DNA from: a virus | Taxonomy: Duplodnaviria; Caudoviricetes | IMG/VR virus record: IMGVR_UViG_3300045855_000012 | Location: 1 to 52,603 of that record | Direction: 5' to 3' (one strand) | Length of the DNA stretch: 52,603 bases | In this document: in pieces, positions 9,233-47,445 of the stretch | How positions within the stretch are numbered: the first letter of the stretch is position 1 | How the letters are laid out: the number at the start of each line of letters is the position of its first letter | Translations under genes and position numbers: made by a program | The notes under the pieces: generated by a model | Told to the model about the DNA's origin: nothing | The model's database searches: none | What the model saw: the letters and a program-made list of their open reading frames with translations, nothing else

Positions 9233-9917
9233 TTTCTTCTTCCTTTTGGTTAATTTGTTCAGCAGTCATATTCTCACACCACGCCATTACACCACAATTA
9301 TGCACTGTAGTGCCACTATAGTTGTCCAACTCACTGTTGTAACCTGCACTATAGTACGTCCAGTACTTCTGGAACTCCTCTGGTACATCAAACTTCCAGC
9401 TCTTAGCAAGAGTAAAGCCACGGTCATAGATCGCACGGTCTGCTTGAGCGTGTTTGCTAGTCAAAGCATCCTCAAAATTCTTGAACTTCTTGTCACCATT
9501 CGAGATACGGATGATGTAAGACACCAGAGAGATGAGATATGTCTGGTTGAAGTAGTAACGTGGGACGAACATCAGGATGTTACCATCCACAACCTCCATT
9601 GTCAAGGGGAAGTCAGGCTTTTCAGCATTAATACAACATGCAATATTGTGCATAAACACATCAATGTCAGTGACATGGTACAAGCGTAGCCACACACCAT
9701 CGTCATTTAGCTTCATGTCATGGTTGTTAAGACCGTAAGCTATGACATGTTTACCATGATAACGTGCTACCACATCATTCAGGTAATCCTTACACATGAA
9801 CCGTCCTGTCTGTGGCAGGAATGTATCACCATCACGGTAGTACACTTGCCAACGCAGCGAGTTAGACTGAGGTGCTTCGCTGTAATGATACTGTGGGTCA
9901 GCTTCAAACTTATACAT
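9222..9917 (-). CDS. Hypothetical protein of the amidoligase cluster
   Basis: Start MYKFEAD overlaps the end of the ATP-grasp gene. Confidence 0.7.
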   Translation of the reverse strand: MYKFEADPQYHYSEAPQSNSLRWQVYYRDGDTFLPQTGRFMCKDYLNDVVARYHGKHVIAYGLNNHDMKLNDDGVWLRLYHVTDIDVFMHNIACCINAEKPDFPLTMEVVDGNILMFVPRYYFNQTYLISLVSYIIRISNGDKKFKNFEDALTSKHAQADRAIYDRGFTLAKSWKFDVPEEFQKYWTYYSAGYNSELDNYSGTTVHNCGVMAWCENMTAEQINQKEEENAL

Positions 9918-10605
9918 TTTGGGTGATTCCTTGGACGTATTTTTCAATGTTGCTACCAGTGATGCCGGGCGCACTGTTAACTTCAATGATGAAAAGGTCG
10001 TCGTTCCTCTCATTATATCCAATATCGACGCCACGGAAGTCCGACGTGCTAACTTTTGCCGCTGCAAGAGCAAGTTCACGTAGTCCGGCTGGCTCGTTCT
10101 CCACCTGTTGACAGAATATGTAGCCATTTGCAAGGTTCCTTACTTTAGTATCACGTTGATCGGTCCAGCCTGTCTTCTTACGCTTCTCCACCACAGACAC
10201 CACAGTGTCCTTGAATACATGCACACGAAACTCACGTTTCTTCTTCTTGTACATTGTGTACACAGGACAGGGCTGGAAATCTTCCATAGTTTCCATGATG
10301 ACAATGCCCTTACCGCAACTGCTGTTCAGGTACTTACGACCAAACACTGTCTTACCACTAGCAATCCACGCTTGGGCCATCTCAGGTGACTGTGTGAACT
10401 CCAAGGATGATAGACCTTGTGACGCGAACCAAACATATTGAGCAATCTTATTCACAGAATGCCCATAGCGGTACTGAATACGGCGTGTAGACAGCTTTGT
10501 AGTGCGAAGCACCCTATGCCCTAGCCGTTGCGTTAACGCACCAGCAAGGAGCTTTAGAGAGGCAGAGAACCGTGTAGATTCAGTGCAGAGCAAGGACAGT
10601 TTCAT
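9910..10605 (-). CDS. ATP-grasp (RimK-like) ligase
   Basis: SSCGKGI, REFRVHV, GVDIG, IIEVNSAPG. Confidence 0.85.
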   Translation of the reverse strand: MKLSLLCTESTRFSASLKLLAGALTQRLGHRVLRTTKLSTRRIQYRYGHSVNKIAQYVWFASQGLSSLEFTQSPEMAQAWIASGKTVFGRKYLNSSCGKGIVIMETMEDFQPCPVYTMYKKKKREFRVHVFKDTVVSVVEKRKKTGWTDQRDTKVRNLANGYIFCQQVENEPAGLRELALAAAKVSTSDFRGVDIGYNERNDDLFIIEVNSAPGITGSNIEKYVQGITQNV

Positions 10606-11746
10606 GCTTAACTCGCTTAGATGGGGTTACTTTCTTTAGATCACCTAGCCGGATTGTAACCATGCCAGTAGCTTTGTCATATTCCATGTCCGTTACACGG
10701 CCATAATACAGACAATTCAAGAAGGATTCCTTAGGATGCAATTCATTCAGATCAAACTCTGCTTGAACCACATGGTCAAAGGTAAACTCTTCAATGTCTC
10801 CCATGAGGAGAACATCAGATGCACCTTGTGCTATTGTTTTAGGAAAATCTTTCTCGATGAAGTCATCAGCCCAGAAGTCTGTTAACGCACCGAACCAACG
10901 CTTTTTTGCTGCTTTGAAAGCGTTCTTGCTCATCCGATTAGTCCCACCACGTTTGCCCTGTCCAGCCACCGTGGAGGCGGTCTTCCAATTGCCAGTTACC
11001 GTATTGGTAACTGGAATAGCTTTTTTTGGCATGTAACTGACAACCTCCACTTTGTTAGTGTCAAGATCAATCTTGTACAGAGTGTTCTCTTTCACAACAA
11101 CAGGCTCGTGGCCTTTAAGTGTTACACCATTACGCCCAAGTATCCAGTACAACAAGCCCATCTCAGATGCCCAGAAGAACCCTTCAGGAGTGTCTACAAA
11201 GCTCATAGGACGCTGATCGTTGCGGAGTAGATAGACCTGATGGTTATTCTGACTATACGCAGCAATGGCGTATGCACCCTTGACCTTACCGATAGCTTCC
11301 TCAAAGGCAGCCAAGTCCCAATCACCATTGAGTACTGGCTCAAGGTGAATGGCAAGAGCTTCACTATCCACCACAGTATCAGCTAACTCCTTGTGATTGG
11401 TTAACGTACCATTATGTACCATAGCAAACTCACCCTTGACGACGAATGGGTGAGCATTCTCGTCAGAGCCAATGCCAATAGTCTTCTTACGATTGTGTCC
11501 AATCAAAGCCTTACCGCGAGGGTACATAGCCTTACCAAGGTCAGACATTTGAATCTGATCTAGTACATAAGGAGCAGCATAGCCTTCCTTCATGATGCCG
11601 AAACCAGCAGTGTTCTCCACCATAATTACACCAGTGGAGTCATCTCCACGCAGCGTATCACAGAACAACATTTGATAGAAAGACTCCTCAGTCTTCTTAT
11701 CAAACCCAAAGTTACCACGAGGTACAACCCCAACAATTCCACACAT
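10580..11746 (-). CDS. Class II (Ntn) glutamine amidotransferase domain protein
   Basis: MCGIVG, RGDDSTG, GHNR, NAHPF, HNGT, DSE. Confidence 0.9.
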   Translation of the reverse strand: MCGIVGVVPRGNFGFDKKTEESFYQMLFCDTLRGDDSTGVIMVENTAGFGIMKEGYAAPYVLDQIQMSDLGKAMYPRGKALIGHNRKKTIGIGSDENAHPFVVKGEFAMVHNGTLTNHKELADTVVDSEALAIHLEPVLNGDWDLAAFEEAIGKVKGAYAIAAYSQNNHQVYLLRNDQRPMSFVDTPEGFFWASEMGLLYWILGRNGVTLKGHEPVVVKENTLYKIDLDTNKVEVVSYMPKKAIPVTNTVTGNWKTASTVAGQGKRGGTNRMSKNAFKAAKKRWFGALTDFWADDFIEKDFPKTIAQGASDVLLMGDIEEFTFDHVVQAEFDLNELHPKESFLNCLYYGRVTDMEYDKATGMVTIRLGDLKKVTPSKRVKHETVLALH

Positions 11747-12513
11747 TAGATCACCGCCAGTTTCAGGTCAAGGATTTGGTTGGTCATAAGACTGCGAACC
11801 AAGGTATAGTCATTGCTCAAACGAGAGCAGCCAAAAATCTTACCAAAGAGCATCTTGATGTTGTCCTCTTGTAAGAGGGTTGAATCAAGTGGAGCTTCCT
11901 TGGCAGTAGCCAACAAGTTACGGATGATGAGCAGCCATTCATCCATCAACACATCATCAGCATGACCATGCATATGACGGAACTCAATCGTACCCTGCTT
12001 GGTCAGGGGCTTGAGATTAAGTGCCGTGTACTTGTGCCAACGACTAATCATGTTGGATATACTACCACTATAAATACTAGGCAGATAAGTCTCTGTCAAG
12101 GGTGTGCAGTGAATGTTATCACGACGATCAGGAGCACACATCAAGAAGAAGGCTTCCTCAAACAAGGCATACAACCATACAGTATCCCGTACTTCCTTGA
12201 GCTTCATGTTAGCGCAGTTAGCATGGACATGAATGGATGTACGCTGAGAGAACGGGTCGAATGTGCCTGTGCTGATAGTCCCATGCAACTTCTTGAACAT
12301 AGTAGAAGCAACAGGGATGGACACAGGATTACTGATGTACTCGTGTCCGTTGTTACGCAACGAACCATCAGTAGTTACGCGCCAGCCTAATTGCTCTGCT
12401 CGTCCATGATCGGTGATGGCCTCAATCTCACACTCGATGCCAACGAATTGCCCAGCGGTAGGATCACGCAGTGCATCAATGTGTATCTCACAACCCAATT
12501 CATCCCAAATCAT
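11746..12513 (-). CDS. Putative amidoligase
   Basis: GIECEIE, TDGSLR..GHEYIS, SIHVH, KYTALN, GTIEFRH. Confidence 0.85.
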   Translation of the reverse strand: MIWDELGCEIHIDALRDPTAGQFVGIECEIEAITDHGRAEQLGWRVTTDGSLRNNGHEYISNPVSIPVASTMFKKLHGTISTGTFDPFSQRTSIHVHANCANMKLKEVRDTVWLYALFEEAFFLMCAPDRRDNIHCTPLTETYLPSIYSGSISNMISRWHKYTALNLKPLTKQGTIEFRHMHGHADDVLMDEWLLIIRNLLATAKEAPLDSTLLQEDNIKMLFGKIFGCSRLSNDYTLVRSLMTNQILDLKLAVI

Positions 12514-13106
12514 ACTAACACCTCATAATGTTCATTGTGGTCAACCATGTGCTGCATAATTTCCGGCAGGAAAATCTTATGCATCATACTGATACGCTTG
12601 GTAGTGTAATCAAACATAGCAATAGTTCGATTGTCAATCAGAATTTTACCTGACCGTAGATAAGACATACGTGGACTCAACGCAATGGCCTTGGTCTTAG
12701 CCTTGGTGTTGAACGCATTGCTGAACGATGAGTAGCTAGGCTTACCGACAAAAGCCTTGAGAGCAGGGAATCCAACATCAACTGCTGTACCTGTAGCTAC
12801 ATTGGTAATCATCGTGTTGTCAGAGCACAGACCACGACGATACTGCCGAGCAGGAATACGCTGCAACAGATAGACAGAATCTTTCCACTGAAACGTTGCC
12901 TTGTGTGGCAGGATGAAGTTCACAGTGTAAGGAGCAGCATCACTGAGATACATCTCAAACGCTGTGTTGTCCTCGTCAACACCACTGATACCATCAGGAC
13001 GTACCTGATGAATCATGAACAGCTTGTCACCAAACTCAGAGAACTTTACATAAGTACCCTCATAGTACTTCTGTATGTCTCGCCAATTGCTTGACGTAAA
13101 ATCCAT
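12510..13106 (-). CDS. Hypothetical protein of the amidoligase cluster
   Basis: 198-aa ORF packed in the operon. Confidence 0.75.
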   Translation of the reverse strand: MDFTSSNWRDIQKYYEGTYVKFSEFGDKLFMIHQVRPDGISGVDEDNTAFEMYLSDAAPYTVNFILPHKATFQWKDSVYLLQRIPARQYRRGLCSDNTMITNVATGTAVDVGFPALKAFVGKPSYSSFSNAFNTKAKTKAIALSPRMSYLRSGKILIDNRTIAMFDYTTKRISMMHKIFLPEIMQHMVDHNEHYEVLV

Positions 13107-13862
13107 TTAGATCACCTCCAAGTTAAACTCATCGACCAACGAACGAGCAACAGATTTGTTGTTGTTGTTGATGGCTTCAAGAATGGACTCAGCATACACA
13201 GACACATCCCACGTACCAGCAGTAGCCTCAGCACGAGTGGTGTTACGGAACACCCAATCAATCAAGCGATCTTCAAAAATCCAGAAGTTCGACAGAGTAC
13301 GGTACTCCACACCATAACTCTTTACTCGGTGTGCTCCGGCTTTTCCATACAGTTGTTTACGATCTTCACCACTATCCATAAGTACACTAGCCACGCCAAG
13401 AAACAAATCACAGTTGCGTACCACATCGGTGGCATCTTTGGCAGTTTCGATGTGAATATGGCCGCCAGCACTACGCATAAAAGGATGCGGAGGCTGTGGT
13501 TTCTGGTTAGTTTTGTTAGTCCAAGCATCATAGTCAGGCTCACATCCAAATATATGGGCAGCAGGGTGCTGCATTTGATCTTCAGGGAAGACAATACAAG
13601 ACAACTTACTGAATGACAAGTTTGGCAGATACTCCAGACTCTTAGCCATCACAGCGTTGATAGACCCTATGAGTTCTTCACTGGTGGATGCTGGGGGAAT
13701 GCCATACTCAAGGGATACGTTGTCCTCTTGCAGTGTATAGCCAGCAGGCATGTCAGGAATCTGCAAAGGATTCCACTTATCAGCCATGATGTAACCAATG
13801 GCGCTGATGGGTTTACCATTAACGTCAACCAAAAAAGTCTCGGGGTCGCTACCAATACGCAT
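13107..13862 (-). CDS. phiEco32-like COOH-NH2 ligase type 2
   Basis: IGSDPETFL, QEDNVSLEY, FGCEPD, RSAGGHIH, YGVEYRTLSNFW. Confidence 0.88.
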   Translation of the reverse strand: MRIGSDPETFLVDVNGKPISAIGYIMADKWNPLQIPDMPAGYTLQEDNVSLEYGIPPASTSEELIGSINAVMAKSLEYLPNLSFSKLSCIVFPEDQMQHPAAHIFGCEPDYDAWTNKTNQKPQPPHPFMRSAGGHIHIETAKDATDVVRNCDLFLGVASVLMDSGEDRKQLYGKAGAHRVKSYGVEYRTLSNFWIFEDRLIDWVFRNTTRAEATAGTWDVSVYAESILEAINNNNKSVARSLVDEFNLEVI

Positions 13863-13875
13863 AATATTCTCCTAG

Positions 13876-14538
13876 TTAATAAGCAATGTCAACCAACTCA
13901 AGGATGTATTCACGAATCAAATCGTTGCAATACAAGGCAAACTCATGGTCATTGTTAACCCATTCAGGATGACCCTGAATAGCAAGACCACGAATATCAG
14001 GGAACCAACATACCTCAACCTCAGGCTTACCTGTCATGTCCACCTCATTATCTGTACCATCCAAGTAAGTATCAGATAGGTGATGTGTAGCAGTAGCCAG
14101 CACCTTACAGTTCACATCATATGGGTACATCAACTGATGGTGTGCTGATGTAGTGGTGATGAGTTCACCATGATGTGTAAGCATAGGATGTTGTCCCATG
14201 TTGTGTCCATGCATGTGCTGGATAAGCCAGCCACCAGCAGCACAGCACATCATCTGAGCACCACGGCACACACCAATCATCGGTATCTTGTGTGCCTTGC
14301 AATACTTCATCGCTCCCCATTCAAATAAGTCTCGACCAGATGGACCATTTCCTGCTTGACTGCGACGACTAACACTATGAGAATACAGAGCAGGATGAAT
14401 GTCTGTACCACCCCAGAAGACAACAGCATCGACACCATCAAAGCCCACCTTAGATACGTCTTGTTGCAACGCAAACACATCGTCGAATGGCGACGCACTA
14501 TGACCAACAGGGCAATAGCCCAACGTGAGTTTCTTCAT
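13876..14538 (-). CDS. Class I glutamine amidotransferase / peptidase C26 (gamma-glutamyl hydrolase-like)
   Basis: GGTDIHPALY, GVCRGAQ, HHQ, IQGHPE. Confidence 0.88.
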   Translation of the reverse strand: MKKLTLGYCPVGHSASPFDDVFALQQDVSKVGFDGVDAVVFWGGTDIHPALYSHSVSRRSQAGNGPSGRDLFEWGAMKYCKAHKIPMIGVCRGAQMMCCAAGGWLIQHMHGHNMGQHPMLTHHGELITTTSAHHQLMYPYDVNCKVLATATHHLSDTYLDGTDNEVDMTGKPEVEVCWFPDIRGLAIQGHPEWVNNDHEFALYCNDLIREYILELVDIAY

Positions 14539-15379: not shown

Positions 15380-15886
15380 TTAAAACTCCAAGAAGTAAAG
15401 GTCAATTGTGTGGTTAAAGGTATAGTCATCTCGTGGGCCACCACGTTTATTCTTAAACGAGTGTACCTTTTGGATGTTAGGATGATTGCGTAATGCCTTG
15501 TCAAATCCAGCAGTTTCAACAGACAACAGCACATAGAATCCAGAAACTACGAATATATGCTGTGCTCCACCATCCTTATCACGCATTAGTGCTTGTTCTT
15601 TCCATTGTTTGCGAAAGAACTTAACAAAAGAGTCTACCTTTTTGGTATTATTCCAAAAGCCATACATACTTAATGCACCAATAGTAGATGCAGCACAGCA
15701 ATGCCCAATAGAAGATGTAACATGACACAAACGGTGCCCTGTTTCATCATACATATTGAAGCCGCGTGTATACCCATCTTCACCTTTACCAAAGGTAAAC
15801 ACAGGAGCTTTGCGTACACGTTTAACGGTAGTAGCAACAGGTACTGGTATGCCCGGAGGATTAAGAGGATCAAAGGTATTAAGCAT
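15380..15886 (-). CDS. Hypothetical protein
   Basis: Start MLNTFD after GAGG inferred. Confidence 0.6.
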   Translation of the reverse strand: MLNTFDPLNPPGIPVPVATTVKRVRKAPVFTFGKGEDGYTRGFNMYDETGHRLCHVTSSIGHCCAASTIGALSMYGFWNNTKKVDSFVKFFRKQWKEQALMRDKDGGAQHIFVVSGFYVLLSVETAGFDKALRNHPNIQKVHSFKNKRGGPRDDYTFNHTIDLYFLEF

Positions 15887-16103
15887 AGCAGTCCTCACCA
15901 GAACCGATGTTGCTGATAGACCCGATGTACTTGGGCAACGAAGCATCAAAGGCTTGACCAACCATGTGGCCCTGCTCATTGAGGATGTATCCACGTTTCT
16001 TGGCAGCACGAGCACGAGCTACATTAAACGATGGTGTCATAGCACCACTACGACGCGAGTATGTCTTACCATCCTCGGTATGGTCAACCATAGTGAAGTA
16101 CAT
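15879..16103 (-). CDS. Hypothetical early protein
   Basis: AAGGAG SD. Confidence 0.65.
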   Translation of the reverse strand: MYFTMVDHTEDGKTYSRRSGAMTPSFNVARARAAKKRGYILNEQGHMVGQAFDASLPKYIGSISNIGSGEDCYA

Positions 16104-16123
16104 TGCAATCTCCTTCTTACAGT

Positions 16124-16348
16124 TTAAGAATTCACAAGGAGATTGCGCTCCTTAGTTGCGGGTTTGTAAATGCTATTCAAAGTCTCGAACACACCAGTCA
16201 CTTCGTCATAAGACAAGACATTGCTGGTATGGCAGATACGACTGTTACTAACCAAATAACTGGTGTGATCTGTAGGATAGACACTAGCACTATGTCCCAC
16301 CTTGATGAAGTCCACAGTTGTGGGCGTGTAATGAACAGTTTGTTTCAT
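16124..16348 (-). CDS. Hypothetical early protein
   Basis: AAGGAG SD. Confidence 0.7.
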   Translation of the reverse strand: MKQTVHYTPTTVDFIKVGHSASVYPTDHTSYLVSNSRICHTSNVLSYDEVTGVFETLNSIYKPATKERNLLVNS

Positions 16349-16432
16349 GAAATACTCCTTTAGTTACAAGAAAAGATACTATCTAACATTTCGCAGGGAA
16401 CTGGGGGCAAAGCATTGATGTTGGCACAGCCG

Positions 16433-16582
16433 CTACTTAGCACGATAAGGACGACACACATTAGTTGAGCCATGAACTACCCTCCACTTGTAAGATACCA
16501 TCAAACCACGAGACAAGCGTGACTGTGGAAACCACGCATCACGCAAGTCCATGTCGAAAGCAACGTAGTTACCATGCTTCAT
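16433..16582 (-). CDS. Small hypothetical protein, 49 aa
   Basis: ATGA coupling to 16579..16725. Confidence 0.4.
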   Translation of the reverse strand: MKHGNYVAFDMDLRDAWFPQSRLSRGLMVSYKWRVVHGSTNVCRPYRAK

Positions 16583-16725
16583 TTTGTTGCCTTACGCACA
16601 GTTACGTTATTCTTGTGCAATTCAGCACGACGAGCAGCAATAGCGTTCCACATAGACGCATGTTTGCTGGGTTTGTCTGCCCTATTGGTATGGGCAGGGA
16701 CATTTCTTACAGTGTTAGTAGCCAT
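16579..16725 (-). CDS. Small basic early protein, 48 aa
   Basis: GGAG SD, MATNTVRN... Confidence 0.55.
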   Translation of the reverse strand: MATNTVRNVPAHTNRADKPSKHASMWNAIAARRAELHKNNVTVRKATK

Positions 16726-16969
16726 GTTAGCTCCAGTTAAACCTAGTCAAAGCGACTAGCCAAAGCACACTCATAGAATGTGCAGTGGTTAGGTGCTGCT
16801 CAAAGATGTTGATAGACCTTCGATGCCGAAGGCGAGACCTTTTATGCTCAAGGCTATACCCTTACATGAAGATGTACAGTATCCAAGGGATAGCTAATAC
16901 AAACGCGATGATAAAACATTCAACTAACATAGTAAGAGATTTCATATAAACTCCAAGGGGGATAATGTA

Positions 16970-17079
16970 TTTCTAATACTGTTAGAAAACGTATAGAAAA
17001 AAGAAGAACGAAAAAAGGCCCCCGAAGGGGCCACTTAATTAGATTAAATGATTTAAATCAGATTTTCTAATACTGTTAG
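16970..17079. repeat. 16-bp direct repeat TTTCTAATACTGTTAG (16970-16985, 17064-17079)
   Basis: Exact copies on either side of a terminator; first copy extends to palindrome TTTCTAA-N5-TTAGAAA. Confidence 0.8.
17011..17032 (-). terminator. Intrinsic terminator
   Basis: GGCCCC-TTCG-GGGGCC-TTTTTT. Confidence 0.9.
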
Positions 17080-17082
17080 TTT

Positions 17083-17931
17083 TTAGACAAGAGCAGTGTC
17101 ATTGTGTGTAAGGTTAGCATGGCGTGCATGTTTAGTTGACAAGTATGCCTTGTCTGTAATTGCTTGGGCCTGTTCAGCAATAGACGGAGCAGGAGCACGT
17201 ACCATAGCTGGCTTACTTGCTTCCGTTATCTCAACATTGCCGATAGCATCCGTCAATGCTTCAAGGGCTTGGGCATGTTGCAACTCATAAGTTGAAAGCA
17301 TAGATTTTAGTGCCGCTATTGCAGTTGCAAAATCACCCATTTTGTCAGCATCTGCCGTGGTCAATTCAGCCGCTATCTTGACAAGTTTACCTGCTATGCC
17401 TTCTTGTGTATGTGCTGGCTTCTCCACATTTTCAAGCAGCTTTTTGATAGCTGCAACAGTCAAGAGTTGACCATTCTCACACAATGGCAACTTGCCGCAG
17501 TATGCAAAATAACGGGTAACGAACGTCTTAGCTACAGCATAGCTTCCTGCTGCTTTCAAGTCTCCCGCCCACAGTTGCCACTGTTTTTCGATTGTCGCTG
17601 GCTTTGCGCCCTTGTCAGCATGGTATGCCGTAAACACTGGCTTGAAATACTCCACTTCTAGTTCACGAATAGCACTCTTAAGCTCATTTGGAATCGCTTC
17701 ATTTACTGGCGTAACACCTTTGTAACCATCTAGCCGTGGACTGCTAAGAATGTCATTCAGTGCGCTGACTGCGCCTTCTGAAGCTGACTTGTCAGCCTTG
17801 AAAGCCTTGTCAAGTGCACGCAATGCATCTACGGGTGACATAGATTCAAATGTGCTGACAGATTCAGCTTTACCCTTAGAATCTACAAATACAACTGCCG
17901 TAGCAGAAAACGAAATATCAAATTTAGACAT
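17083..17931 (-). CDS. First early gene, Ala/Lys-rich hypothetical protein (282 aa)
   Basis: GGAG SD before MSKFDISF; followed by its own terminator. Confidence 0.8.
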   Translation of the reverse strand: MSKFDISFSATAVVFVDSKGKAESVSTFESMSPVDALRALDKAFKADKSASEGAVSALNDILSSPRLDGYKGVTPVNEAIPNELKSAIRELEVEYFKPVFTAYHADKGAKPATIEKQWQLWAGDLKAAGSYAVAKTFVTRYFAYCGKLPLCENGQLLTVAAIKKLLENVEKPAHTQEGIAGKLVKIAAELTTADADKMGDFATAIAALKSMLSTYELQHAQALEALTDAIGNVEITEASKPAMVRAPAPSIAEQAQAITDKAYLSTKHARHANLTHNDTALV

Positions 17932-18268
17932 GATAAAAACTCCAATGAGTGTAGTCACATTGCACACTATGCACAAGCATACTAACCCCACAAGATCACT
18001 TAGCAGTGAGCTTGTAAAATCTTATACTGTTAGATTCTCGCCCTTGAGGGCTTCGGTTAGATTAATTAATCTTCTGATAATCCACGGTGAACGGAACATC
18101 GTTAGCAAGCAAGGCAGTAATCCACTTTAGGGCATCCCCTTGTGTCGTGTACTTTTGCACACGAGTACGTCCGAAAAACTCACATGTGATAACGATGGTC
18201 ATATCTTCCCCCTTAGTGGTCAACTCTAACTTTTAAACCTTGTGACGCGATGGTCACCCTAACTACTA

Positions 18269-18284
18269 TGCAAGCGCCGTGCCA
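18269..18284 (-). promoter_or_regulatory. sigma54 -24/-12 element 1
   Basis: TGGCACGGCGCTTGCA, matches TGGCACG-N4-TTGCW exactly. Confidence 0.8.
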
Positions 18285-18332
18285 ACTATCTCAAACTAAC
18301 CAAAAAGGCACCAACTCGCACATATAGACATA

Positions 18333-18348
18333 AGCAAACCCCATGCCA
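18333..18348 (-). promoter_or_regulatory. sigma54 -24/-12 element 2
   Basis: TGGCATGGGGTTTGCT (GG-N10-GC). Confidence 0.75.
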
Positions 18349-18428
18349 ACTATGTGTTTTGTCCTATATGCGACGCTTTTACGTCGCTTTTACAGTGATT
18401 TACCCCTATTTCCCTACACTTGACAACA

Positions 18429-18444
18429 TGGCATAGGACTTGCT
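18429..18444 (+). promoter_or_regulatory. sigma54 -24/-12 element 3
   Basis: TGGCATAGGACTTGCT (GG-N10-GC). Confidence 0.7.
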
Positions 18445-18502
18445 AAGTGTGACATAAATGTTAGAACTATGACATAAAAGGCACAATGTGACACATCTTG
18501 TC

Positions 18503-18518
18503 AGGCACAATACTTGCT
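18503..18518 (+). promoter_or_regulatory. sigma54 -24/-12 element 4
   Basis: AGGCACAATACTTGCT (GG-N10-GC). Confidence 0.6.
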
Positions 18519-18659
18519 AGTGTGTTTATATGCTGCGCTTAGGCTTGCATAAGCACTATGCTGCATGTAAGCATGATGTATGCACTTTAATGCACATGGG
18601 TTGGATACTCCATGGGGTATAGCTCGCTCAAATGGGGTGGGCCTGTCTACCTAGTCGCC

Positions 18660-18672
18660 TAACTCATTGATT
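18660..18672 (-). promoter_or_regulatory. IHF consensus site
   Basis: AATCAATGAGTTA = WATCAANNNNTTR. Confidence 0.5.
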
Positions 18673-19159
18673 TATTATAATAGGACACACATCAAATTAT
18701 AACCCTATTACACACACAGAGGGGGGTGGGGGGAAAACTTGGTGGAGCAGCATTTGACGTAATGCACTCTGTTACATTTTTTATGATTTTTTTATACTGG
18801 GGTGTTAGCCAATTGATTTAAAGGGTCTAGGAGCTCTTGAAAGAGGTTGTGGCTACATTGGTATACCCTACTGCGATTAAACGCCGTACAGAGCGTTTAA
18901 GAGCCTTCTAGGGCTATTGCTTAATGCGCTCGACCCTATGGGCCTCGCGTAACAGCTCACAACAAGGAGTGGGTAATACGCAGTGTAATACGCATACATA
19001 GAATACAACTTACTTACAAGAATACCTTAGTATTCTTGTTATATACTTATATACTAGTATATTACTTATATTAGGGTATCATACTTTTATAAAAAGTCAA
19101 GTGTTATTTTCACTTACGTTCAAATAACCATAATTGACTATCTTGTTTACTACTACTAC

Positions 19160-19189
19160 TTGACTTGTCAAGAGTATTAATGATATAAT
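19160..19189 (+). promoter_or_regulatory. sigma70-type promoter for the packaging/structural arm
   Basis: TTGACT-18-TATAAT with extended TG. Confidence 0.7.
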
Positions 19190-19233
19190 ATAGGTACTCG
19201 CAAACAACTACGTTGTCTTGCTCGAATAAAACC

Positions 19234-19464
19234 ATGTTTAAGGAAACAATCTTGTCTAAACTCTTTGTCATTCTCGCAGTTACACTGCTCGGTCTAGGCT
19301 TCGCCATTGCTGGTGATTTGAAAGTGTTTTCTGGCACCTTCCAAGACGGTGCTGTGATGAAATGGGTATGCCCTCCGGGCGCTGCAGGTACAATTCCTTT
19401 CCAGTTTACAACACCTGAAGGTGGTCAATATTCTGCTCAAATATCTTGTGGTAACGGTGTCTAA
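19234..19464 (+). CDS. Small exported or membrane-anchored protein
   Basis: Signal-peptide-like KLFVILAVTLLGLGFAIA; two Cys in mature part. Confidence 0.6.
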   Translation: MFKETILSKLFVILAVTLLGLGFAIAGDLKVFSGTFQDGAVMKWVCPPGAAGTIPFQFTTPEGGQYSAQISCGNGV

Positions 19465-19499
19465 TTTTGCTACAAATTAAAACCAAGGGGCAAAATTAA

Positions 19500-20060
19500 G
19501 TGGCTTATAAACCTGTAACAAAAGATCGTTCTACCTTAGCTGAGACAAACTTGCGATGGTCGGAGAAGCAACGAATGGAAGCTGTGAACAGCTACCTCCT
19601 ACTCGGTAACCTCGCGCTCACAGCGCGTATACTGAACATCCCAGAGATTACTCTTCGTGTTTGGAAAGCTCAAACATGGTGGAAAGATGCTGTTCTGGAG
19701 ATTAAGAGTTCTGAGAAGGTTCAACTGTCCACTCGAATTCGTAAGCTTGTAGACGGAGCCTTGGCTGTAGTCGAAGATCGTTTGACCAACGGAGACTTTC
19801 AGTTTGACCAGAAAACTGGTGTAGTTGTACGCAAGCCGGTTAACATGAAAGATGCTCACAAGGTTGCCATTGACATGGCAGACAAGCATGAACAACTTGA
19901 ACGCTCTGAACGTCCTGAACAGACAGAGGAACATGTAGAGGATAAACTCCTGAAGCTTGCTGAGAAGTTTGCTGACATGGCTACAAAGAAGATTGAACAA
20001 AACAATAATGCATCCCGTACTGTTGACGTTGAGGATGTAGAAGATAACACAGCTCGGTAG
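19500..20060 (+). CDS. Putative terminase small subunit
   Basis: N-terminal HTH (LALTARILNIPEITLRVWK), size, position upstream of TerL. Confidence 0.7.
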   Translation: MAYKPVTKDRSTLAETNLRWSEKQRMEAVNSYLLLGNLALTARILNIPEITLRVWKAQTWWKDAVLEIKSSEKVQLSTRIRKLVDGALAVVEDRLTNGDFQFDQKTGVVVRKPVNMKDAHKVAIDMADKHEQLERSERPEQTEEHVEDKLLKLAEKFADMATKKIEQNNNASRTVDVEDVEDNTAR

Positions 20061-20125
20061 TGTAATGGGCAGCACAGCAGCCTCCAAATCTGCTTGTAGA
20101 GGTTCGAGTCCTTTCCGGGTTGCCA
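20051..20125 (+). tRNA. tRNA-Trp (CCA)
   Basis: Acceptor AGCTCGG/CCGGGTT, anticodon loop CTCCAAA, T arm AGAGG-TTCGAGT-CCTTT, encoded G-CCA end. Confidence 0.9.
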
Positions 20126-20183
20126 GATAACATGGCTCACCTGATTTACTTCGGTAGACGGGTGGGTTCTTTAAGGAGTACTC

Positions 20184-20471
20184 ATGCCATATATGACTGA
20201 TGGTCACCGTGATTACAAAAAGGAATACAAGCTTTATGCTGGAAAGCCCGCAGCTATTCACGCCAGATCAGAACGGACTACTCTTCGTAGACAAGCTAAT
20301 GCCAAAGGCATCACACACAAGGGTGACGGAAAAGACCTTGATCACATCCATCCCCTGTCAAAAGGTGGATCGAATACTCTCGCTAATACGAGAGTCGTTT
20401 CCCAACATCAAAACCGAAGTTTTAGTCGCAATCACGACGGCTCTCTTAAGCGAAACGACGGTCATAAATAA
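20184..20471 (+). CDS. HNH endonuclease (packaging module)
   Basis: GDGKDLDHIHPLSKGGSN..NTRVV..NRS. Confidence 0.85.
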   Translation: MPYMTDGHRDYKKEYKLYAGKPAAIHARSERTTLRRQANAKGITHKGDGKDLDHIHPLSKGGSNTLANTRVVSQHQNRSFSRNHDGSLKRNDGHK

Positions 20472-20480
20472 GATTTAACA

Positions 20481-21998
20481 ATGGCTCTTTCAGCAGACGT
20501 CATAGCCGGTCTAGTCGGCTCAGTCCTTGGTAACCGTTTCGATGGACGAAGTGCAACTCCCCCCTTCCACAAGGAGTGCTGGGAGTTGTGTACTAGTCCT
20601 GATAAGTTCGTAGCTATTGCAGCCCCACGGGGCCATGCTAAGTCTACTGCAGTGACACTAGGTTACGGATTGTCTACACTGCTGTTTCGTGAACGTAAGT
20701 TCATGCTTCTTGTTTCGGATACTGAATCCCAAGCGTCCTTGTTCTTAGGTACGTTTAAACAAGAGTTACAAGATAACGATGAGTTAATTGATTTGTTCCG
20801 TATAAAGCGGAGCGAGAATGGTTTAGTCAAGTTTGTGAAAGACTCAGAAACTGACATTATAGTTGAGTGTGAGGACGGACATAAGTTTCGGATCATTGCC
20901 AAGGGAGCAGAACAGAAGCTCCGTGGATTAATCTGGAACGGGTCGCGTCCTGACATCATTATGTGCGATGACATGGAGAATGACGAGCTTGTGATGAACA
21001 AGGAACGTCGTGATAAGATGCGTAGATGGTTCAAGGGTGCTCTGCTACCCTGTCGATCTGACAATGGCATCATCCGTATTGTAGGCACCATCTTGCACAA
21101 CGACTCTTTGCTTGAATCATTCATGCCGAATGACTCTGACAAGATGACCCAACGGGTTGGTCTTAAAACTTTCACTACTCGCAAGTCGATGTGGAAAGCA
21201 GTTAAGTACCGAGCACACAATGAAGACTTCTCTGAGCTTCTCTGGCCTTCCAAGAAGAGTGCTGATGAGTTTAAGATGATGTATAACGAGGCTGTACGTG
21301 ATGGTACAACAGATATTTACTCACAAGAGTACTTGAATGTCCCTCTTGACGAGTCAGTTACCTTCTTCAAGAAGAGTGACTTCCTTGCAACTACGCAAGA
21401 AGATCGTCAAAACAAGATGCATCACTACATCACTGCTGACTTAGCCATTTCAGAATCAGAAAAAGCTGACTATTCGGTGTTCATTCTTGCTGGAGTGGAT
21501 GAAAACAAGATTATTCACATCAAAGACGTCATACGTGAGCGTCTAGATGGTCGTCAAATCGTTGACAATCTGCTGTTTATGAACCAAGTTTATGATCCTG
21601 AGGCCGTAGGCATCGAGGACATGCAGGTTTCTAAGTCAATTGGCCCCTTCCTACGGGAAGAGATGATTAAAAATAACAACTACCTTAGTCTTGTGCCCCT
21701 AAAGCATGGGGGTAAGGATAAAATTACACGTTCTCGCTCAATTCAGGCTCGTATGAGAGCCCACAGTGTTAAGTTTAACAAGGAAGCGGATTGGTATCCC
21801 ATCTTTGAGAACGAATGTTTAACCTTTCCTCGTGGTAAGCATGATGACCAAGTAGATGCATTTGCTTATCTAGGTCTGATGCTTGACAAACTCATAGAGG
21901 CCCCTACTAAAGAAGAAATAGAGGAAGACGAATATGATGCCGAACTCAGGAATGGCGAGTCAGCAAGCACCGGGCAGTCAGCAACAACAGGATACTAG
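20481..21998 (+). CDS. terL: Terminase large subunit
   Basis: APRGHAKST, IIMCDDME, ITADLA, HDDQVDA. Confidence 0.93.
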   Translation: MALSADVIAGLVGSVLGNRFDGRSATPPFHKECWELCTSPDKFVAIAAPRGHAKSTAVTLGYGLSTLLFRERKFMLLVSDTESQASLFLGTFKQELQDNDELIDLFRIKRSENGLVKFVKDSETDIIVECEDGHKFRIIAKGAEQKLRGLIWNGSRPDIIMCDDMENDELVMNKERRDKMRRWFKGALLPCRSDNGIIRIVGTILHNDSLLESFMPNDSDKMTQRVGLKTFTTRKSMWKAVKYRAHNEDFSELLWPSKKSADEFKMMYNEAVRDGTTDIYSQEYLNVPLDESVTFFKKSDFLATTQEDRQNKMHHYITADLAISESEKADYSVFILAGVDENKIIHIKDVIRERLDGRQIVDNLLFMNQVYDPEAVGIEDMQVSKSIGPFLREEMIKNNNYLSLVPLKHGGKDKITRSRSIQARMRAHSVKFNKEADWYPIFENECLTFPRGKHDDQVDAFAYLGLMLDKLIEAPTKEEIEEDEYDAELRNGESASTGQSATTGY

Positions 21999-25906: not shown

Positions 25907-26530
25907 ATGTCAAGTGTTTCTCGTCTTAACGGGTTTCGTCCCGTTAAAACTATCACTGGTGCCCCCTATAACGGCCAAGGTGAAGTTGCGTTTCTTCCCG
26001 CCTCCGACTCCACAGTTGTGATGGTTGGTGATGCTGTGAAGCTGCTGGGCGATGCCCGTAGCCCCACTGGCGCCCCTACTGTTACTCGTGTATCTGCTGG
26101 TACAGATATCCCGTTTGGTATTGTTGTTGGTATTCTTTTCACTGGTGTAGGCGACATTCAAAACGTTCCTCCTGTCACCGATCTGAATACCCCTATGTAT
26201 CGTCGTGCATCTACTGACCGTTATGTGTTGGTGTGTACTGATCCTAGCGTTGTGTATGAAGCTCAGTATCTGACAACCTCAGTTGCTGGTGCTACCATTA
26301 CAGCTAACGTCGGTTTGAACGGTAGCTTCGATGTGACCGCTGGTTCCACCACTTCTGGTAGTTCTGGTATGTCTATTGCTGCTCTGTCTGCTACTACGGC
26401 TACATTGCCCCTTAAAGTGGTTGGCTTCCCCAATCGTCCTGATAACGTTCCCGGCGACACCTATTTCAGTTACTATGTTAAGCTCAACAGCTCGACCAAT
26501 AGTACTGGCACTGGTCAGACTGGCGTTTAA
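25907..26530 (+). CDS. Putative capsid decoration/minor head protein
   Basis: GFRPVK...MVGDAV pattern, directly upstream of MCP. Confidence 0.6.
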   Translation: MSSVSRLNGFRPVKTITGAPYNGQGEVAFLPASDSTVVMVGDAVKLLGDARSPTGAPTVTRVSAGTDIPFGIVVGILFTGVGDIQNVPPVTDLNTPMYRRASTDRYVLVCTDPSVVYEAQYLTTSVAGATITANVGLNGSFDVTAGSTTSGSSGMSIAALSATTATLPLKVVGFPNRPDNVPGDTYFSYYVKLNSSTNSTGTGQTGV

Positions 26531-37769: not shown

Positions 37770-39230
37770 ATGGCATATTCAAAGAGTCCTACAGTTTCTA
37801 CTTATGATACAAAGAGAATTGACTTTGTAATCAACCCTATGCAGCGTAGTGGCTCTTTGCTAAACAAGGATGCCAAGCTGGTTAACATGATGGTTGAGGT
37901 TGTAGAAACTCCTAACAACACCAATCAACGTATCTTTGTCAAGAGTAGGCCCGGACTAGCTCTAGCCTATGCTACAACTGCTGGAGTTGGTCGTGGCTGC
38001 TATTACTGGCTAGTTGGTGGTGTAGGTTATGTTCTGTCTGTGGTTGGCTCTAGTGTCTATTACAACGGAGTGTTCCTACAGACATTGACAACCTCTACTG
38101 GTACTTGCGGCTTCACAGAGTTTGTTAACTCTACTGGAACTAACACTCTTGTTCTACTAGATGGTACAAAAGGTTATGTGTTCACTAGCCCAACAGTAGC
38201 TGGTACAGAGATTACTTCGGTTGACTTCCCAACACCTCACATACCAATCCCCATCTTCATGGATGGGTATTTGTTTGTAGCTAAAGCTGGTACTCAAGAC
38301 ATTTACAACTCCAACCTAGATGATCCTAGTCTATGGACAGCAGGAGATTACATCTCTGCTGAAATGTATCCAGATAAGATCGTTGCTCTATCTAAGAATA
38401 ATAACTACGTCTATGCCGTAGGCTCTAACTCAGTTGAGTACTTCTATGATGCTGCTACAGCCTCCGGTTCTCCTCTAGCACGACATGACTCTGCTGTTCA
38501 ACAGTTTGGTACTGCTGCTCCTTCTACTGTTGTTCAAACAGAGAAGGAAGTCATCATGATAGGTGAGACAGGTAATGGTGGTCACACTGTATGGACCATT
38601 GATGGCTTTAAGGAAACAGAAATTGGTACTCCAGCTATCCGTAGTGTCTTGCGTGTAGAAGGAGCTAATCTAGTCAATGCTGTAGCTCACTGTACTCGTG
38701 TATCAGGACAAAAACTGTACATTGTCAATTTGAGTACACAAACCATAGTCTACAGTTTTGATTCAAAGATGTGGAGCTTCTGGAACTCTGGTCCCGGTGG
38801 TACACTGGCGTTTGTAGGTAAATATGGCACAGATGGCCCTAATGGTGTAGCTTACATCCAGCATGAATCTGATGGTGACATCTACACTATTAGTGAAGAC
38901 AATCACATAGATCATGATGTAGCTTTCCGTTGTCGTATTCAAACACCTAAGTATGACTTTGATACTTTCAATGCCAAGTTCATGTCTAGGTTCTCCTTGA
39001 TTGGTGATATACCAGATGGTTCAGGTACGGGTAATGTTCTTCAAATCTCTTGGAGTGATGATGATTATCAAACATGGACTACAAATCGTGACCTGTCTTT
39101 TGACTACGATTTTCCTTGCATTGCTCAACTGGGACGTTTTCGCAGACGAGCTTTTCGAGTTGACTATTCCCAGCCATACCTTCTTCGACTAGAAGGGTTT
39201 GAGGTTGACATTAACAAAGGTAATCAATAA
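37770..39230 (+). CDS. Tail hub / DNA stabilization protein (P22 gp10-like)
   Basis: Beta-propeller-like; SAEMYPD, SWSDDDYQTW, LGRFRRRAF. Confidence 0.8.
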   Translation: MAYSKSPTVSTYDTKRIDFVINPMQRSGSLLNKDAKLVNMMVEVVETPNNTNQRIFVKSRPGLALAYATTAGVGRGCYYWLVGGVGYVLSVVGSSVYYNGVFLQTLTTSTGTCGFTEFVNSTGTNTLVLLDGTKGYVFTSPTVAGTEITSVDFPTPHIPIPIFMDGYLFVAKAGTQDIYNSNLDDPSLWTAGDYISAEMYPDKIVALSKNNNYVYAVGSNSVEYFYDAATASGSPLARHDSAVQQFGTAAPSTVVQTEKEVIMIGETGNGGHTVWTIDGFKETEIGTPAIRSVLRVEGANLVNAVAHCTRVSGQKLYIVNLSTQTIVYSFDSKMWSFWNSGPGGTLAFVGKYGTDGPNGVAYIQHESDGDIYTISEDNHIDHDVAFRCRIQTPKYDFDTFNAKFMSRFSLIGDIPDGSGTGNVLQISWSDDDYQTWTTNRDLSFDYDFPCIAQLGRFRRRAFRVDYSQPYLLRLEGFEVDINKGNQ

Positions 39231-40822: not shown

Positions 40823-41686
40823 ATGGCAGACAATACAGATATCGTTCAACAGATTCTGGGACACCTTCAGTCGTTAAAACAAACAGATTATGGCACACTA
40901 GGTGCCCTTGGTGGAGCTGTTGGTGCATATACCAATGGTAACAAGGTAGGTGATGCCTACGGAGCCTCTGCTGCTGATGCAGCTAGTCAAGCAGAAACCT
41001 TGCGTACACAGATGGAGCAGATGCCTACATTGGCTGCAATGTATGGTGCTGATTCTCCCTATGCTAAACAGTTGCAACAAACCCTAGCTCGTAAGGATGC
41101 TGCTGCTGGACGTAATAGCCAGTATGGTCCACGTTCTGTTCAGCTTCAAGCTATGCTGGCAGACAAGGGTAGTCAGTATGCTCAACAGCAAGCCACAATG
41201 GCTCAGGCTTACAACACTGCTCGTTCTAATGCCAATACACAGCGGGTTAATGCTGTAACAGGACAAGCTCAGGTACAAGGTCAACAGCTAGGTAGTTTGT
41301 TCAATCTTGGAGAGAAGTCAGGACTACTTCCTGCACTCAATGAAGGTTTGTCTAACATGTCAAGACCTTATGTTCAACAAGCTAGTTCTGCTCTGCGGGA
41401 TATGTTCCCCACTTGGAGTGGTACACCTACTAGTCAACCTATGAATCAATCACCCTACAGCGGTGGTGGTGATTATTCTGGTTACACTACTGGTAGTGGT
41501 TACTCTGCTCCAGAAGATGTATATCAAGGTGCTGTTAATCAGCCAATGGATCAGAGTCCTTACGCCAACTATGGTGGTAACTACCAAAGCTATACACCGG
41601 GTACTTCTGGAACAGAACAAGGACTAGATACTGCTCCTTACAATTCTGGTATTCCTGATAATTCTAATCCTTACTACGACTACTAA
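40823..41686 (+). CDS. Putative ejection protein
   Basis: Gln/Ala/Gly-rich; position. Confidence 0.6.
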   Translation: MADNTDIVQQILGHLQSLKQTDYGTLGALGGAVGAYTNGNKVGDAYGASAADAASQAETLRTQMEQMPTLAAMYGADSPYAKQLQQTLARKDAAAGRNSQYGPRSVQLQAMLADKGSQYAQQQATMAQAYNTARSNANTQRVNAVTGQAQVQGQQLGSLFNLGEKSGLLPALNEGLSNMSRPYVQQASSALRDMFPTWSGTPTSQPMNQSPYSGGGDYSGYTTGSGYSAPEDVYQGAVNQPMDQSPYANYGGNYQSYTPGTSGTEQGLDTAPYNSGIPDNSNPYYDY

Positions 41687-47032: not shown

Positions 47033-47445
47033 AAATGTCAGACAAGGGACTCAAACTCCTAACTTTACGGGAAGGCTCTCGTAAGAAAGCCTACCAAGAT
47101 ACTAAAGGTATCTGGACAATCGGTGTGGGCCATACTGGCCCAGAAGTGGTTAAGGGTTTGGTCTGGTCTGACCAGCAGATACTGGACCAGCTACGCAAGG
47201 ATGTTGCCATTACAGAGAAATGTCTGGATGACAATGTTGTTGTGTTGCTGGGACAGGATCAAGTAGATGCCTTGTGTAGCTTCATCTTCAATGTTGGAGT
47301 TAATGCTTTTAGGCGTTCTACAATGCTCAAGTTCATTAACAAAGGTATGATGAAGGAAGCAGCTAATGAGTTTGACAGATGGCACATACCGCCAGAGATA
47401 ACCTCAAGGCGTAATTCAGAGAAGTCCCAGTTTCAAGGGACGTAA
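47029..47445 (+). CDS. Endolysin, GH24 lysozyme
   Basis: E-x8-D-x5-T triad: REGSRKKAYQDTKGIWTIGVGHT; DALCSFIFNVG. Confidence 0.92.
   Translation: MKMSDKGLKLLTLREGSRKKAYQDTKGIWTIGVGHTGPEVVKGLVWSDQQILDQLRKDVAITEKCLDDNVVVLLGQDQVDALCSFIFNVGVNAFRRSTMLKFINKGMMKEAANEFDRWHIPPEITSRRNSEKSQFQGT

Follow-up and report, generated by a model that had tools for sequence, protein, structure and literature searches.

The complete virus record IMGVR_UViG_3300045855_000012 (52,603 bp, analysed over its full length and called the window below) consists of two divergent arms of genes that meet at 18.2-19.5 kb, and four elements resembling sigma-54 -24/-12 promoters lie where they meet. This array sits in the single large non-coding control region that separates the early and replication arm from the packaging and structural arm. 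We conclude that positions 18230-18530 are probably a bidirectional, enhancer-dependent control region run by the host's sigma-54 (RpoN) and a host activator. A first-pass annotation of this DNA had suggested that a host sigma-54 activator gates early expression, to be checked by scanning for the RpoN pattern against shuffled sequence and by looking for conservation in related phages. Both checks turned out in its favour, and gating by a host activator is the best-supported and most economical reading, because the phage encodes no recognisable activator or sigma-54 domain and the leftward pair of elements is conserved in position and orientation. We infer promoter use, the enhancer role of the nearby repeats and the host origin of the activator.

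The -24/-12 elements and their conservation

The search pattern was TGGCAYNNNNNTTGCW (TGGCAY-N5-TTGCW), in which GG and GC are separated by exactly 10 bases; transcription from a sigma-54 promoter would begin about 12 nt beyond the GC. The leftward pair stands ahead of the first gene that is conserved in the early and replication arm. P(-)1, TGGCACGGCGCTTGCA at 18269-18284 (minus strand), matches the pattern exactly and has a predicted start near 18258, which would place a leader of some 55 nt before the ATG at 18202. P(-)2, TGGCATGGGGTTTGCT at 18333-18348 (minus strand), is also exact, is placed 64 bp upstream of P(-)1 and has a predicted start near 18322. Back to back with it stands P(+)1, TGGCATAGGACTTGCT at 18429-18444 (plus strand), again an exact match (predicted start near 18455), followed by P(+)2, AGGCACAATACTTGCT at 18503-18518 (plus strand), with one mismatch (A for T at -26) and a predicted start near 18529. 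The four GG-N10-GC elements reported by the first-pass annotation are thus present on the strands it gave, three of them fitting the wider sigma-54 consensus exactly and one with a single mismatch.

Exact matches to the pattern occurred three times in the 52.6 kb, all inside 18269-18444 (176 bp), compared with a mean of 0.18 in shuffled sequence; none of 100 shuffles gave three, and the pattern read backwards had no match in the window. When one mismatch was allowed (GG and GC required), the window held seven sites, four in the array and the rest at 9405, 26365 and 36818. The site at 26365 at first seemed conserved, and was rejected as a promoter because its -12 box is mostly lost in 46 aligned homologues and its bases encode a G-M/T-S-I/V-A peptide. 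A consensus scan for sigma-70 promoters found at best 9 of 12 matching bases in the leftward direction, which agrees with the earlier remark that no strong sigma-70 promoter faces the early genes.

Related phages were gathered through the large terminase (50 IMG/VR loci), through an alignment of homologues of p282, the leftward arm's first conserved gene (10 IMG/VR and 33 metagenome loci), and through a single-protein search with p282 in viral contigs (one locus). Several metagenome loci are the same contigs as IMG/VR loci (L072/L016, L080/L009, L088/L026, L090/L017 and L092/L050), and others are near-duplicates of each other (L073/L074/L076, L082/L096 and L089/L094). Sites were counted in the 27 metagenome loci that extend 300 nt or more beyond the start of the p282 homologue.

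Of these 27 loci, 19 carried one or two sites with at most one mismatch, all oriented like the p282 homologue and 160-570 nt upstream of it. Across 29 loci (120.6 kb, both strands) we counted 29 exact matches, against about 0.4 expected at the window's shuffle rate, and 28 of them fell in the stretch upstream of p282. In whole-record scans of 10 related records we found seven exact matches, five of which are in the control region; the reversed pattern, used as a control, matched once. A motif-blind count of paired 4-mers with a gap, made on the gene strand upstream of p282 in 26 loci and in the window (27 regions in all), ranked GGCA-N7-TGCT and TGGC-N8-TGCT first (19 of 27) and TGTC-N8-GACA second (17 of 27); the maximum in shuffles was 5-7. 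The N5 spacers vary widely across loci, and TGGCAY and TTGCW are held. The 19 loci, the motif-blind count and the comparison with L067 below all show conservation of the boxes and not of the spacer, with GG/GC spacing, place and orientation kept. Among named phages, MW202796 (L054) has one exact site at 18083 (plus strand) near its divergent region, and in Alcaligenes phage QDWS535 (L055), whose genes are laid out in the same way, the divergent region lacks sigma-54 sites.

Most relatives have only one or two sigma-54 sites, all on the gene strand, and the divergent array of two plus two recurs in L067, the closest relative (p282 94% identical), and in L087 (p282 45% identical). P(-)2 is identical to its L067 counterpart at all 16 positions, and the same 16-mer is found in L087; P(+)1 is likewise identical at 16 of 16 in L067, and L087 has an equivalent opposite-strand site. 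P(-)1 agrees with L067 at 14 of 16 positions, the differences being in the spacer and at the W position, and P(+)2 (AGGCACAGATATTGCT in L067) at 12 of 16, with all four differences in the N5 spacer. The flanks are 46-62% identical, and a 10 bp deletion separates the two phages between the leftward sites.

These footprints bear on the identity of the protein that reads the motif. Since the assignment to sigma-54 is sequence-based, another DNA-binding protein or a phage RNA polymerase might recognise boxes that mimic the -24/-12 consensus; no T7-type RNA polymerase was found, in a search whose control was silent and which is therefore weak evidence of absence. We consider such a reader extremely improbable, because conservation is restricted to the positions that sigma-54 reads (TGGCAY, TTGCW and the fixed N5) while the spacer drifts, and because the 16-mers resemble sigma-54 sites mapped by chromatin immunoprecipitation (ChIP) in Salmonella, as given in an excerpt of PMC3844500.

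Enhancer-like repeats and the putative activator

Five TGACA/TGTCA half-sites, at 18421, 18450, 18470, 18489 and 18499, make up an enhancer-like cluster at 18421-18503. There are 141 such half-sites in the window, and these five within 90 bp are the densest cluster in it (Poisson tail 5.6 × 10−6, or about 0.003 when corrected for the 585 windows of the scan). Measured upstream from the -24 box of P(-)2, the cluster is about 75-170 bp away, or about 75-240 bp for the leftward pair, and it also lies between P(+)1 and P(+)2. Sigma-54 enhancer sites are usually about 70-150 bp or more upstream. The cluster core (18445-18502) shares 55 of 58 bases with L067 (95%), and degenerate TGTC-N8-GACA dyads with one mismatch are present at 18360-18375 and 18459-18474.

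All three palindromes listed by the first-pass annotation were found where it had put them. TGACA-N5-TGTCA (18489-18503) belongs to the half-site cluster. The dyad GCGACG-N6-CGTCGC (18370-18387) is between P(-)2 and P(+)1, where it would be transcribed from none of the four elements, and it is retained in L067 by changes on both arms (GCGACC-N6-GGTCGC). GTGAC-N6-GTCAC (18242-18257) opens the predicted P(-)1 leader; its symmetry is lost in L067, and inspection by eye found other hairpin-capable dyads in its place in relatives. The proposed site for integration host factor (IHF) fared less well. The consensus match AATCAATGAGTTA at 18660-18672 (minus strand) is probably fortuitous and is not evidence for the array, because such matches number five in the window where 3.1 are expected (23 of 100 shuffles give at least five); it is not conserved in L067 and falls outside the enhancer-promoter interval. 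An IHF site between enhancer and sigma-54 promoter is frequent, not obligatory.

The upstream regions of the relatives contain a better defined candidate enhancer. Exact TGTC-N8-GACA dyads numbered 40 upstream of promoters in 17 of 26 related loci, versus four in the rest of these loci. In 9 of 27 loci two dyads stand 4 bp apart, and for eight of the nine the distance from the end of the pair to the sigma-54 site is 54-64 bp. In L087 the dyad pair is found between the two rightward promoters, where the window has its TGACA cluster. We scanned prokaryotic genomes, one per species, for a dyad followed after 50-80 nt by a sigma-54 site, and obtained at least 121 matches, which are an arbitrary subset. 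Among the matches listed, the downstream genes included nif-type genes in diazotrophs (NifH, IscA/HesB-like), flagellar genes and prepilin genes, the last in nine, seven of which are one family in betaproteobacterial metagenome-assembled genomes (MAGs). A partner dyad at 20 bp accompanied five of the nine pilin matches and 3 of the 112 others among the matches listed (P = 3 × 10−5, Fisher test).

The prepilin promoters of betaproteobacterial MAGs, which we take to be of PilR type (L109, L123, L134, L150, L153, L199 and L216), have a dyad pair followed by 50-64 bp. Eight phage relatives (L072-L076, L079, L089 and L094) are built alike, with two TGTC-N8-GACA dyads 4 bp apart, an interval of 54-64 bp and TGGCAY-N5-TTGCW. 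In Pseudomonas aeruginosa, the PilR sites at pilA are described as NifA-like TGT-N11-AGA with GTCT elements (excerpt of PMC6058289). The window differs from the pilin promoters in having TGACA/TGTCA half-sites and dyads with one mismatch only, and because of this we do not file it with the PilR/NifA-type enhancers, whose TGT-N10-ACA class includes TGTC-N8-GACA; at best it would act in a similar manner.

Other relatives resemble NtrC-controlled promoters, for which an excerpt of PMC8743547 gives the enhancer consensus TGCACCAnnnTGGTGCA. In L088, TGCACCATTATGGTGCT and TGCACTAAAAAGGTGCA precede the single sigma-54 site by about 100-180 bp, and L092 carries one such dyad at about 100 bp from its site, likewise upstream; in L094 the NtrC-like dyad is just downstream of the promoters, unlike the upstream NtrC enhancers. 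Together these three loci hold four NtrC-like dyads in 22.6 kb of control regions versus none in the remaining 96.7 kb. The window has no NtrC-like dyad, only direct GTGCAT repeats at 18575-18600. The nitrogen link on which the first-pass annotation had speculated is not shown for the window phage, and the idea is not empty for the clade, because L088, L092 and L094 carry such dyads.

A PilR/NifA-like activator is the best lead that the relatives provide, and an NtrC-like one would fit some of them. The class of activator is not settled, because the dyad pattern also matches nif and flagellar promoters. Two further look-alikes, the FleQ box GTCaNTAAAtTGAC with the same GTC-N8-GAC spacing (PMC6120874, in part) and the GlrR sites TGTCN10GACA, which are 2 bp longer (PMC3045617, in part), are not separable from PilR/NifA by sequence alone. 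Across the clade, one type of core promoter seems to be joined to differing enhancers, and three kinds were seen, namely paired TGTC-N8-GACA dyads arranged as at host pilin (PilR/NifA-type) promoters, NtrC-like dyads, and TGACA direct repeats with a rightward pair as in the window. It is conceivable, though we hold it only tentatively, that the clade keeps a sigma-54 core before the same first gene and swaps the enhancers, so that each lineage would be wired to a different host pathway.

Sigma-54 holoenzyme cannot open DNA unaided. Six-frame searches of the phage genome found neither the AAA+ activator domains PF00158 and PF14532, in keeping with the earlier statement that no activator is recognisable, nor the sigma-54 DNA-binding domain PF04552. 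Because of these two facts, firing of the promoters should need an enhancer-binding protein of the host. To our knowledge, all characterised sigma-54 activators use a PF00158-type AAA+ domain. It is accordingly unlikely that a phage factor outside all known families, made early or delivered by the virion, takes the place of the host activator, or that the phage modifies the holoenzyme: no domain of that type is encoded, promoters of the first genes cannot await their own products, and the relatives' enhancer dyads resemble host pilin, nif and ntr promoters. What speaks for a phage factor is that most early open reading frames (ORFs), including p282, which always follows the promoters, lack a family or fold match, and that some promoters of Pseudomonas phage YuA have been suggested to need extra phage-encoded factors (PMC10914365, in part).

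A passive role of the sites is a further alternative. Closed complexes of sigma-54 are stable without activator, according to part of PMC3844500, and four sites are crowded into 250 bp, two of which adjoin the repeat cluster; the array might therefore be a sink, roadblock or anchor for the holoenzyme and not a set of promoters, much as the first-pass annotation had offered an RpoN decoy or DNA-entry anchor. We find this very unlikely and do not retain it. Four sites are too few to titrate the cellular pool, orientation towards the first gene is kept in 19 of 27 loci, most relatives have just one or two sites, directed at the gene, and the enhancer-like dyads are at the canonical distance.

In the favoured reading, gating by a host activator, host sigma-54 holoenzyme would bind all four sites as closed complexes, and a host AAA+ enhancer-binding protein at the TGACA/TGTCA cluster (18421-18503) would open them. 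Leftward transcripts starting near 18322 and 18258 would express the small genes, p282, an amidoligase and glutamine-amidotransferase cassette and the replication genes. Rightward transcripts starting near 18455 and 18529, driven from the same enhancer, would cross about 700 nt containing a G-run/ACGTCAAAT box, an 80-nt block and an AT-rich stretch, and would then reach p83 and the packaging genes, which would also be under a sigma-70-like promoter.

Several observations weigh against this reading. The upstream region of 8 of the 27 relatives (L068, L070, L080, L081, L083, L086, L090 and L091) has no sigma-54 site, so sigma-54 is dispensable for the clade. Of four such relatives checked for a sigma-70 replacement, only L081 has a clear candidate (11/12 and 10/12) and L080 a moderate one; L083 and L090 have no sigma-70-like promoter on the gene strand. 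The locus counts overstate the number of independent lineages and events, because many loci are near-duplicates. No exact TGTC-N8-GACA dyad is present in the window, and the link between its repeats and the relatives' enhancer would rest on the shared half-site. The window phage has three tail-spike-like proteins, which suggest a polysaccharide receptor and so weaken a pilus-centred account for it. Finally, the rightward promoters open onto a leader of about 700 nt without a conserved ORF and with weak evidence of RNA structure, and a strong sigma-70-like promoter already serves the rightward genes.

The rightward leader and the genome around it

That promoter, TTGACT-18-TATAAT with a TG extension (19160-19189, plus strand, 11/12), is just upstream of p83 and the packaging genes, and 28 of 37 bases of its region are the same in L067. 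It leaves room for a different role of P(+)1 and P(+)2, which could activate or prime a replication origin by sending transcripts into the G-run box and the AT-rich DNA at 19000-19200. The primary origin of T7 has tandem promoters followed by AT-rich DNA. The absence of a conserved ORF from the 700-nt leader fits such a role, as do the GC content of 22-28% at 19000-19200, the cumulative GC-skew minimum of the window at 18-19 kb with a local sign change at about 18450-18500, and the GTAATAC/GAATAC-GTATTC boxes and invariant TATTAGGGTATCATA downstream. A skew minimum is, however, equally expected where gene orientation switches, the conserved boxes also occur in relatives without rightward sigma-54 sites, and we identified no origin-binding protein or iteron system. 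We regard an origin role as possible but rather improbable; it concerns the rightward pair only and is compatible with host gating of the leftward pair.

In the path of the predicted rightward transcripts lies the conserved box GAGGGGGGTGGGGGGAAAA...ATTTGACGTAA (18719-18765, plus strand), whose G-run is present in most relatives, even in some without sigma-54 sites such as L017. It reads GGGGGG-N1-2-GGGGGG followed by AAAA on the terminase strand, and is also found in L004, L006, L043, L063, L082, L089 and others; the ATTTGACGTAA motif after it is shared by the window's subclade and L026/L088. Several related contigs end about 40-300 nt from the G-run, which could be a physical genome end, a packaging site or origin, or an assembly break at poly-G. 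Further along, the non-coding block 18870-18950 is 79% identical to L067 and recognisable in L087. The consensus fold of this block (18860-18960) is weak (-8.5 kcal/mol, with two of 13 pairs changed on both sides), and an insertion in L067 breaks a small minus-strand ORF at 18877-19008.

The stretch 18973-19040 has repeated GTAATAC boxes and the palindrome AAGAATAC-N4-GTATTCTT. Control regions of relatives contain related boxes five to eight times, including GTAATACTTT half-sites and GAATAC-N4-GTATTC or AGTAC-N4-GTACT dyads, the dyads being found in 5' leaders and immediately ahead of the distal -24 box. All these boxes are candidate sites of a second regulator, or candidate iterons. A 15-mer, TATTAGGGTATCATA, at 19069-19083, with GTCAA at 19096-19100, does not vary across 13 further loci (about 11 distinct contigs) although the control regions have otherwise diverged; its opposite strand reads TTGAC(A/T)-N11-12-TATGAT, a spacing unfit for sigma-70.

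The leftward arm (18223 to 1) opens with small ORFs of no known family. The first of these, at 18062-18202 (minus strand), would encode 46 amino acids from the ATG at 18202, with AAGGGGGAAG upstream; its status as a gene is uncertain because the stretch is poorly kept in L067 (58 of 141 nt identical). In L067, L069 and L087 the 5' leader of the p282 homologue has a conserved 40-nt element, TTGTCCAAAATGGNGCTGACAAMCCATAGGGACAAG, with self-complementary ends at about -150 to -105, and in the window the 46-amino-acid ORF occupies that position. Then comes p282 (17083-17931, minus strand), whose homologues are downstream of the sigma-54 sites in relatives. It had no Pfam or PHROG match, a PDB profile search gave nothing meaningful, and it is not similar to the 282-amino-acid 'antirestriction protein' of MW202796. 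Its AlphaFold model (predicted local distance difference test score 70.7) matched no PDB fold at E ≤ 0.001, and the sole BFVD match was an uncharacterised phage protein.

The middle of the leftward arm is a cassette of glutamine-amidotransferase, COOH-NH2 ligase, amidoligase, GlmS-like Gn_AT_II and RimK-like ATP-grasp genes (9910-14538, minus strand), and Alcaligenes phage QDWS535 is annotated with the same amidoligase/glutamine-amidotransferase cassette. The arm ends with a primase, endonuclease VII, a DnaB-type helicase, a split family-A DNA polymerase and a 5'-3' exonuclease. The polymerase is divided into at least two ORFs (4936-6063 and 3565-4257). Five genes are of HNH/endonuclease VII type (1056-1454, 3197-3568, 7665-8225, 20184-20471 and 51733-52152), one of them directly behind the C-terminal piece of the polymerase. 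In the relatives L027, L030 and L035 the large terminase gene (terL) matches in two pieces about 480-620 nt apart, which suggests an intron, an intein or a homing-endonuclease insertion.

At the head of the rightward arm is p83, a small membrane-type ORF. It is followed by genes for a terminase-small-like protein, tRNA-Trp, an HNH protein, the large terminase, the portal, the major head protein, the three tail-spike-like proteins and a head-closure protein. The tRNA-Trp (CCA) gene (20051-20125) overlaps the final codons of the terminase-small-like ORF (19500-20060), and an Rfam scan of the window found tRNA only. A six-frame search of the phage genome found no integrase or resolvase, and in the favoured reading the phage is probably of virulent type. 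Among the 25 best of 893 large-terminase matches, an uncultured phage and Alcaligenes phage QDWS535 came first, and blastn with 17900-19600 found nothing similar in 50,697 phage records. For 15500-20500, a look-up of sequencing runs listed five riverine runs of DNA type, which may be the source, and no RNA run.

Sigma-54 promoters in bacteria and in phages

The enhancer-dependent promoters glnAp2, nifH and pspA are the classical examples of sigma-54 control. The window resembles such promoters in its repeats and dyads about 70-250 bp upstream and in its tandem and divergent arrangements, and it shares with the ChIP-mapped RpoN promoters of Salmonella (PMC3844500, in part) the exact 10-nt spacing of GG and GC in TGGCAY-N5-TTGCW. 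Unlike the classical promoters, those of the window are on a virus without a sigma-54 or activator gene, head an early and replication arm and have no credible IHF site.

Phage start-up is usually ascribed to strong sigma-70 promoters or to a phage polymerase. The statement of the first-pass annotation that most lytic phages start from sigma-70 promoters is true, and the present case is not unprecedented, since the use of sigma-54 by phages, though rare, has been described. The GenBank record of Pseudomonas phage YuA lists three active -24/-12 promoters (38392-38570, 40888-41035 and 47152-47312); a sigma-54-like YuA promoter has been mapped (PMC10914365, in part), and development of YuA is reported to depend on host sigma-54 (excerpt of PMC5053324). 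YuA has no RNA polymerase of its own and uses -24/-12 promoters of host sigma-54, a use that is predicted for the window phage as well, in which the T7-type polymerase search with its silent control gave no match. The YuA promoters were reported active in a promoter trap. The two phages are not close, YuA being absent from the 25 best of 893 large-terminase matches.

The YuA promoters are in the structural module, whereas the window sites are in a divergent control region ahead of the early arm. The window phage also differs in its tandem and divergent layout, its visible enhancer architectures and the clade-wide conservation. A literature search of limited reach for sigma-54-dependent early promoters of phages found no description of such a layout, and novelty is limited by the YuA precedent. 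The comparative set, made up of 27 loci with a further two arrays of four promoters and with two or three types of enhancer, leads to testable predictions, and the phage parts might be of use as tightly off, signal-gated expression modules.

An early region gated by sigma-54 would tie infection to a host signal, for example the surface/pilus or nitrogen state. If this is true, these uncultured freshwater and river phages would be 'conditional infectors', which commit only in a given physiological state of the host. This would bear on phage-host dynamics in natural waters and on the condition-dependent plating of some phages.

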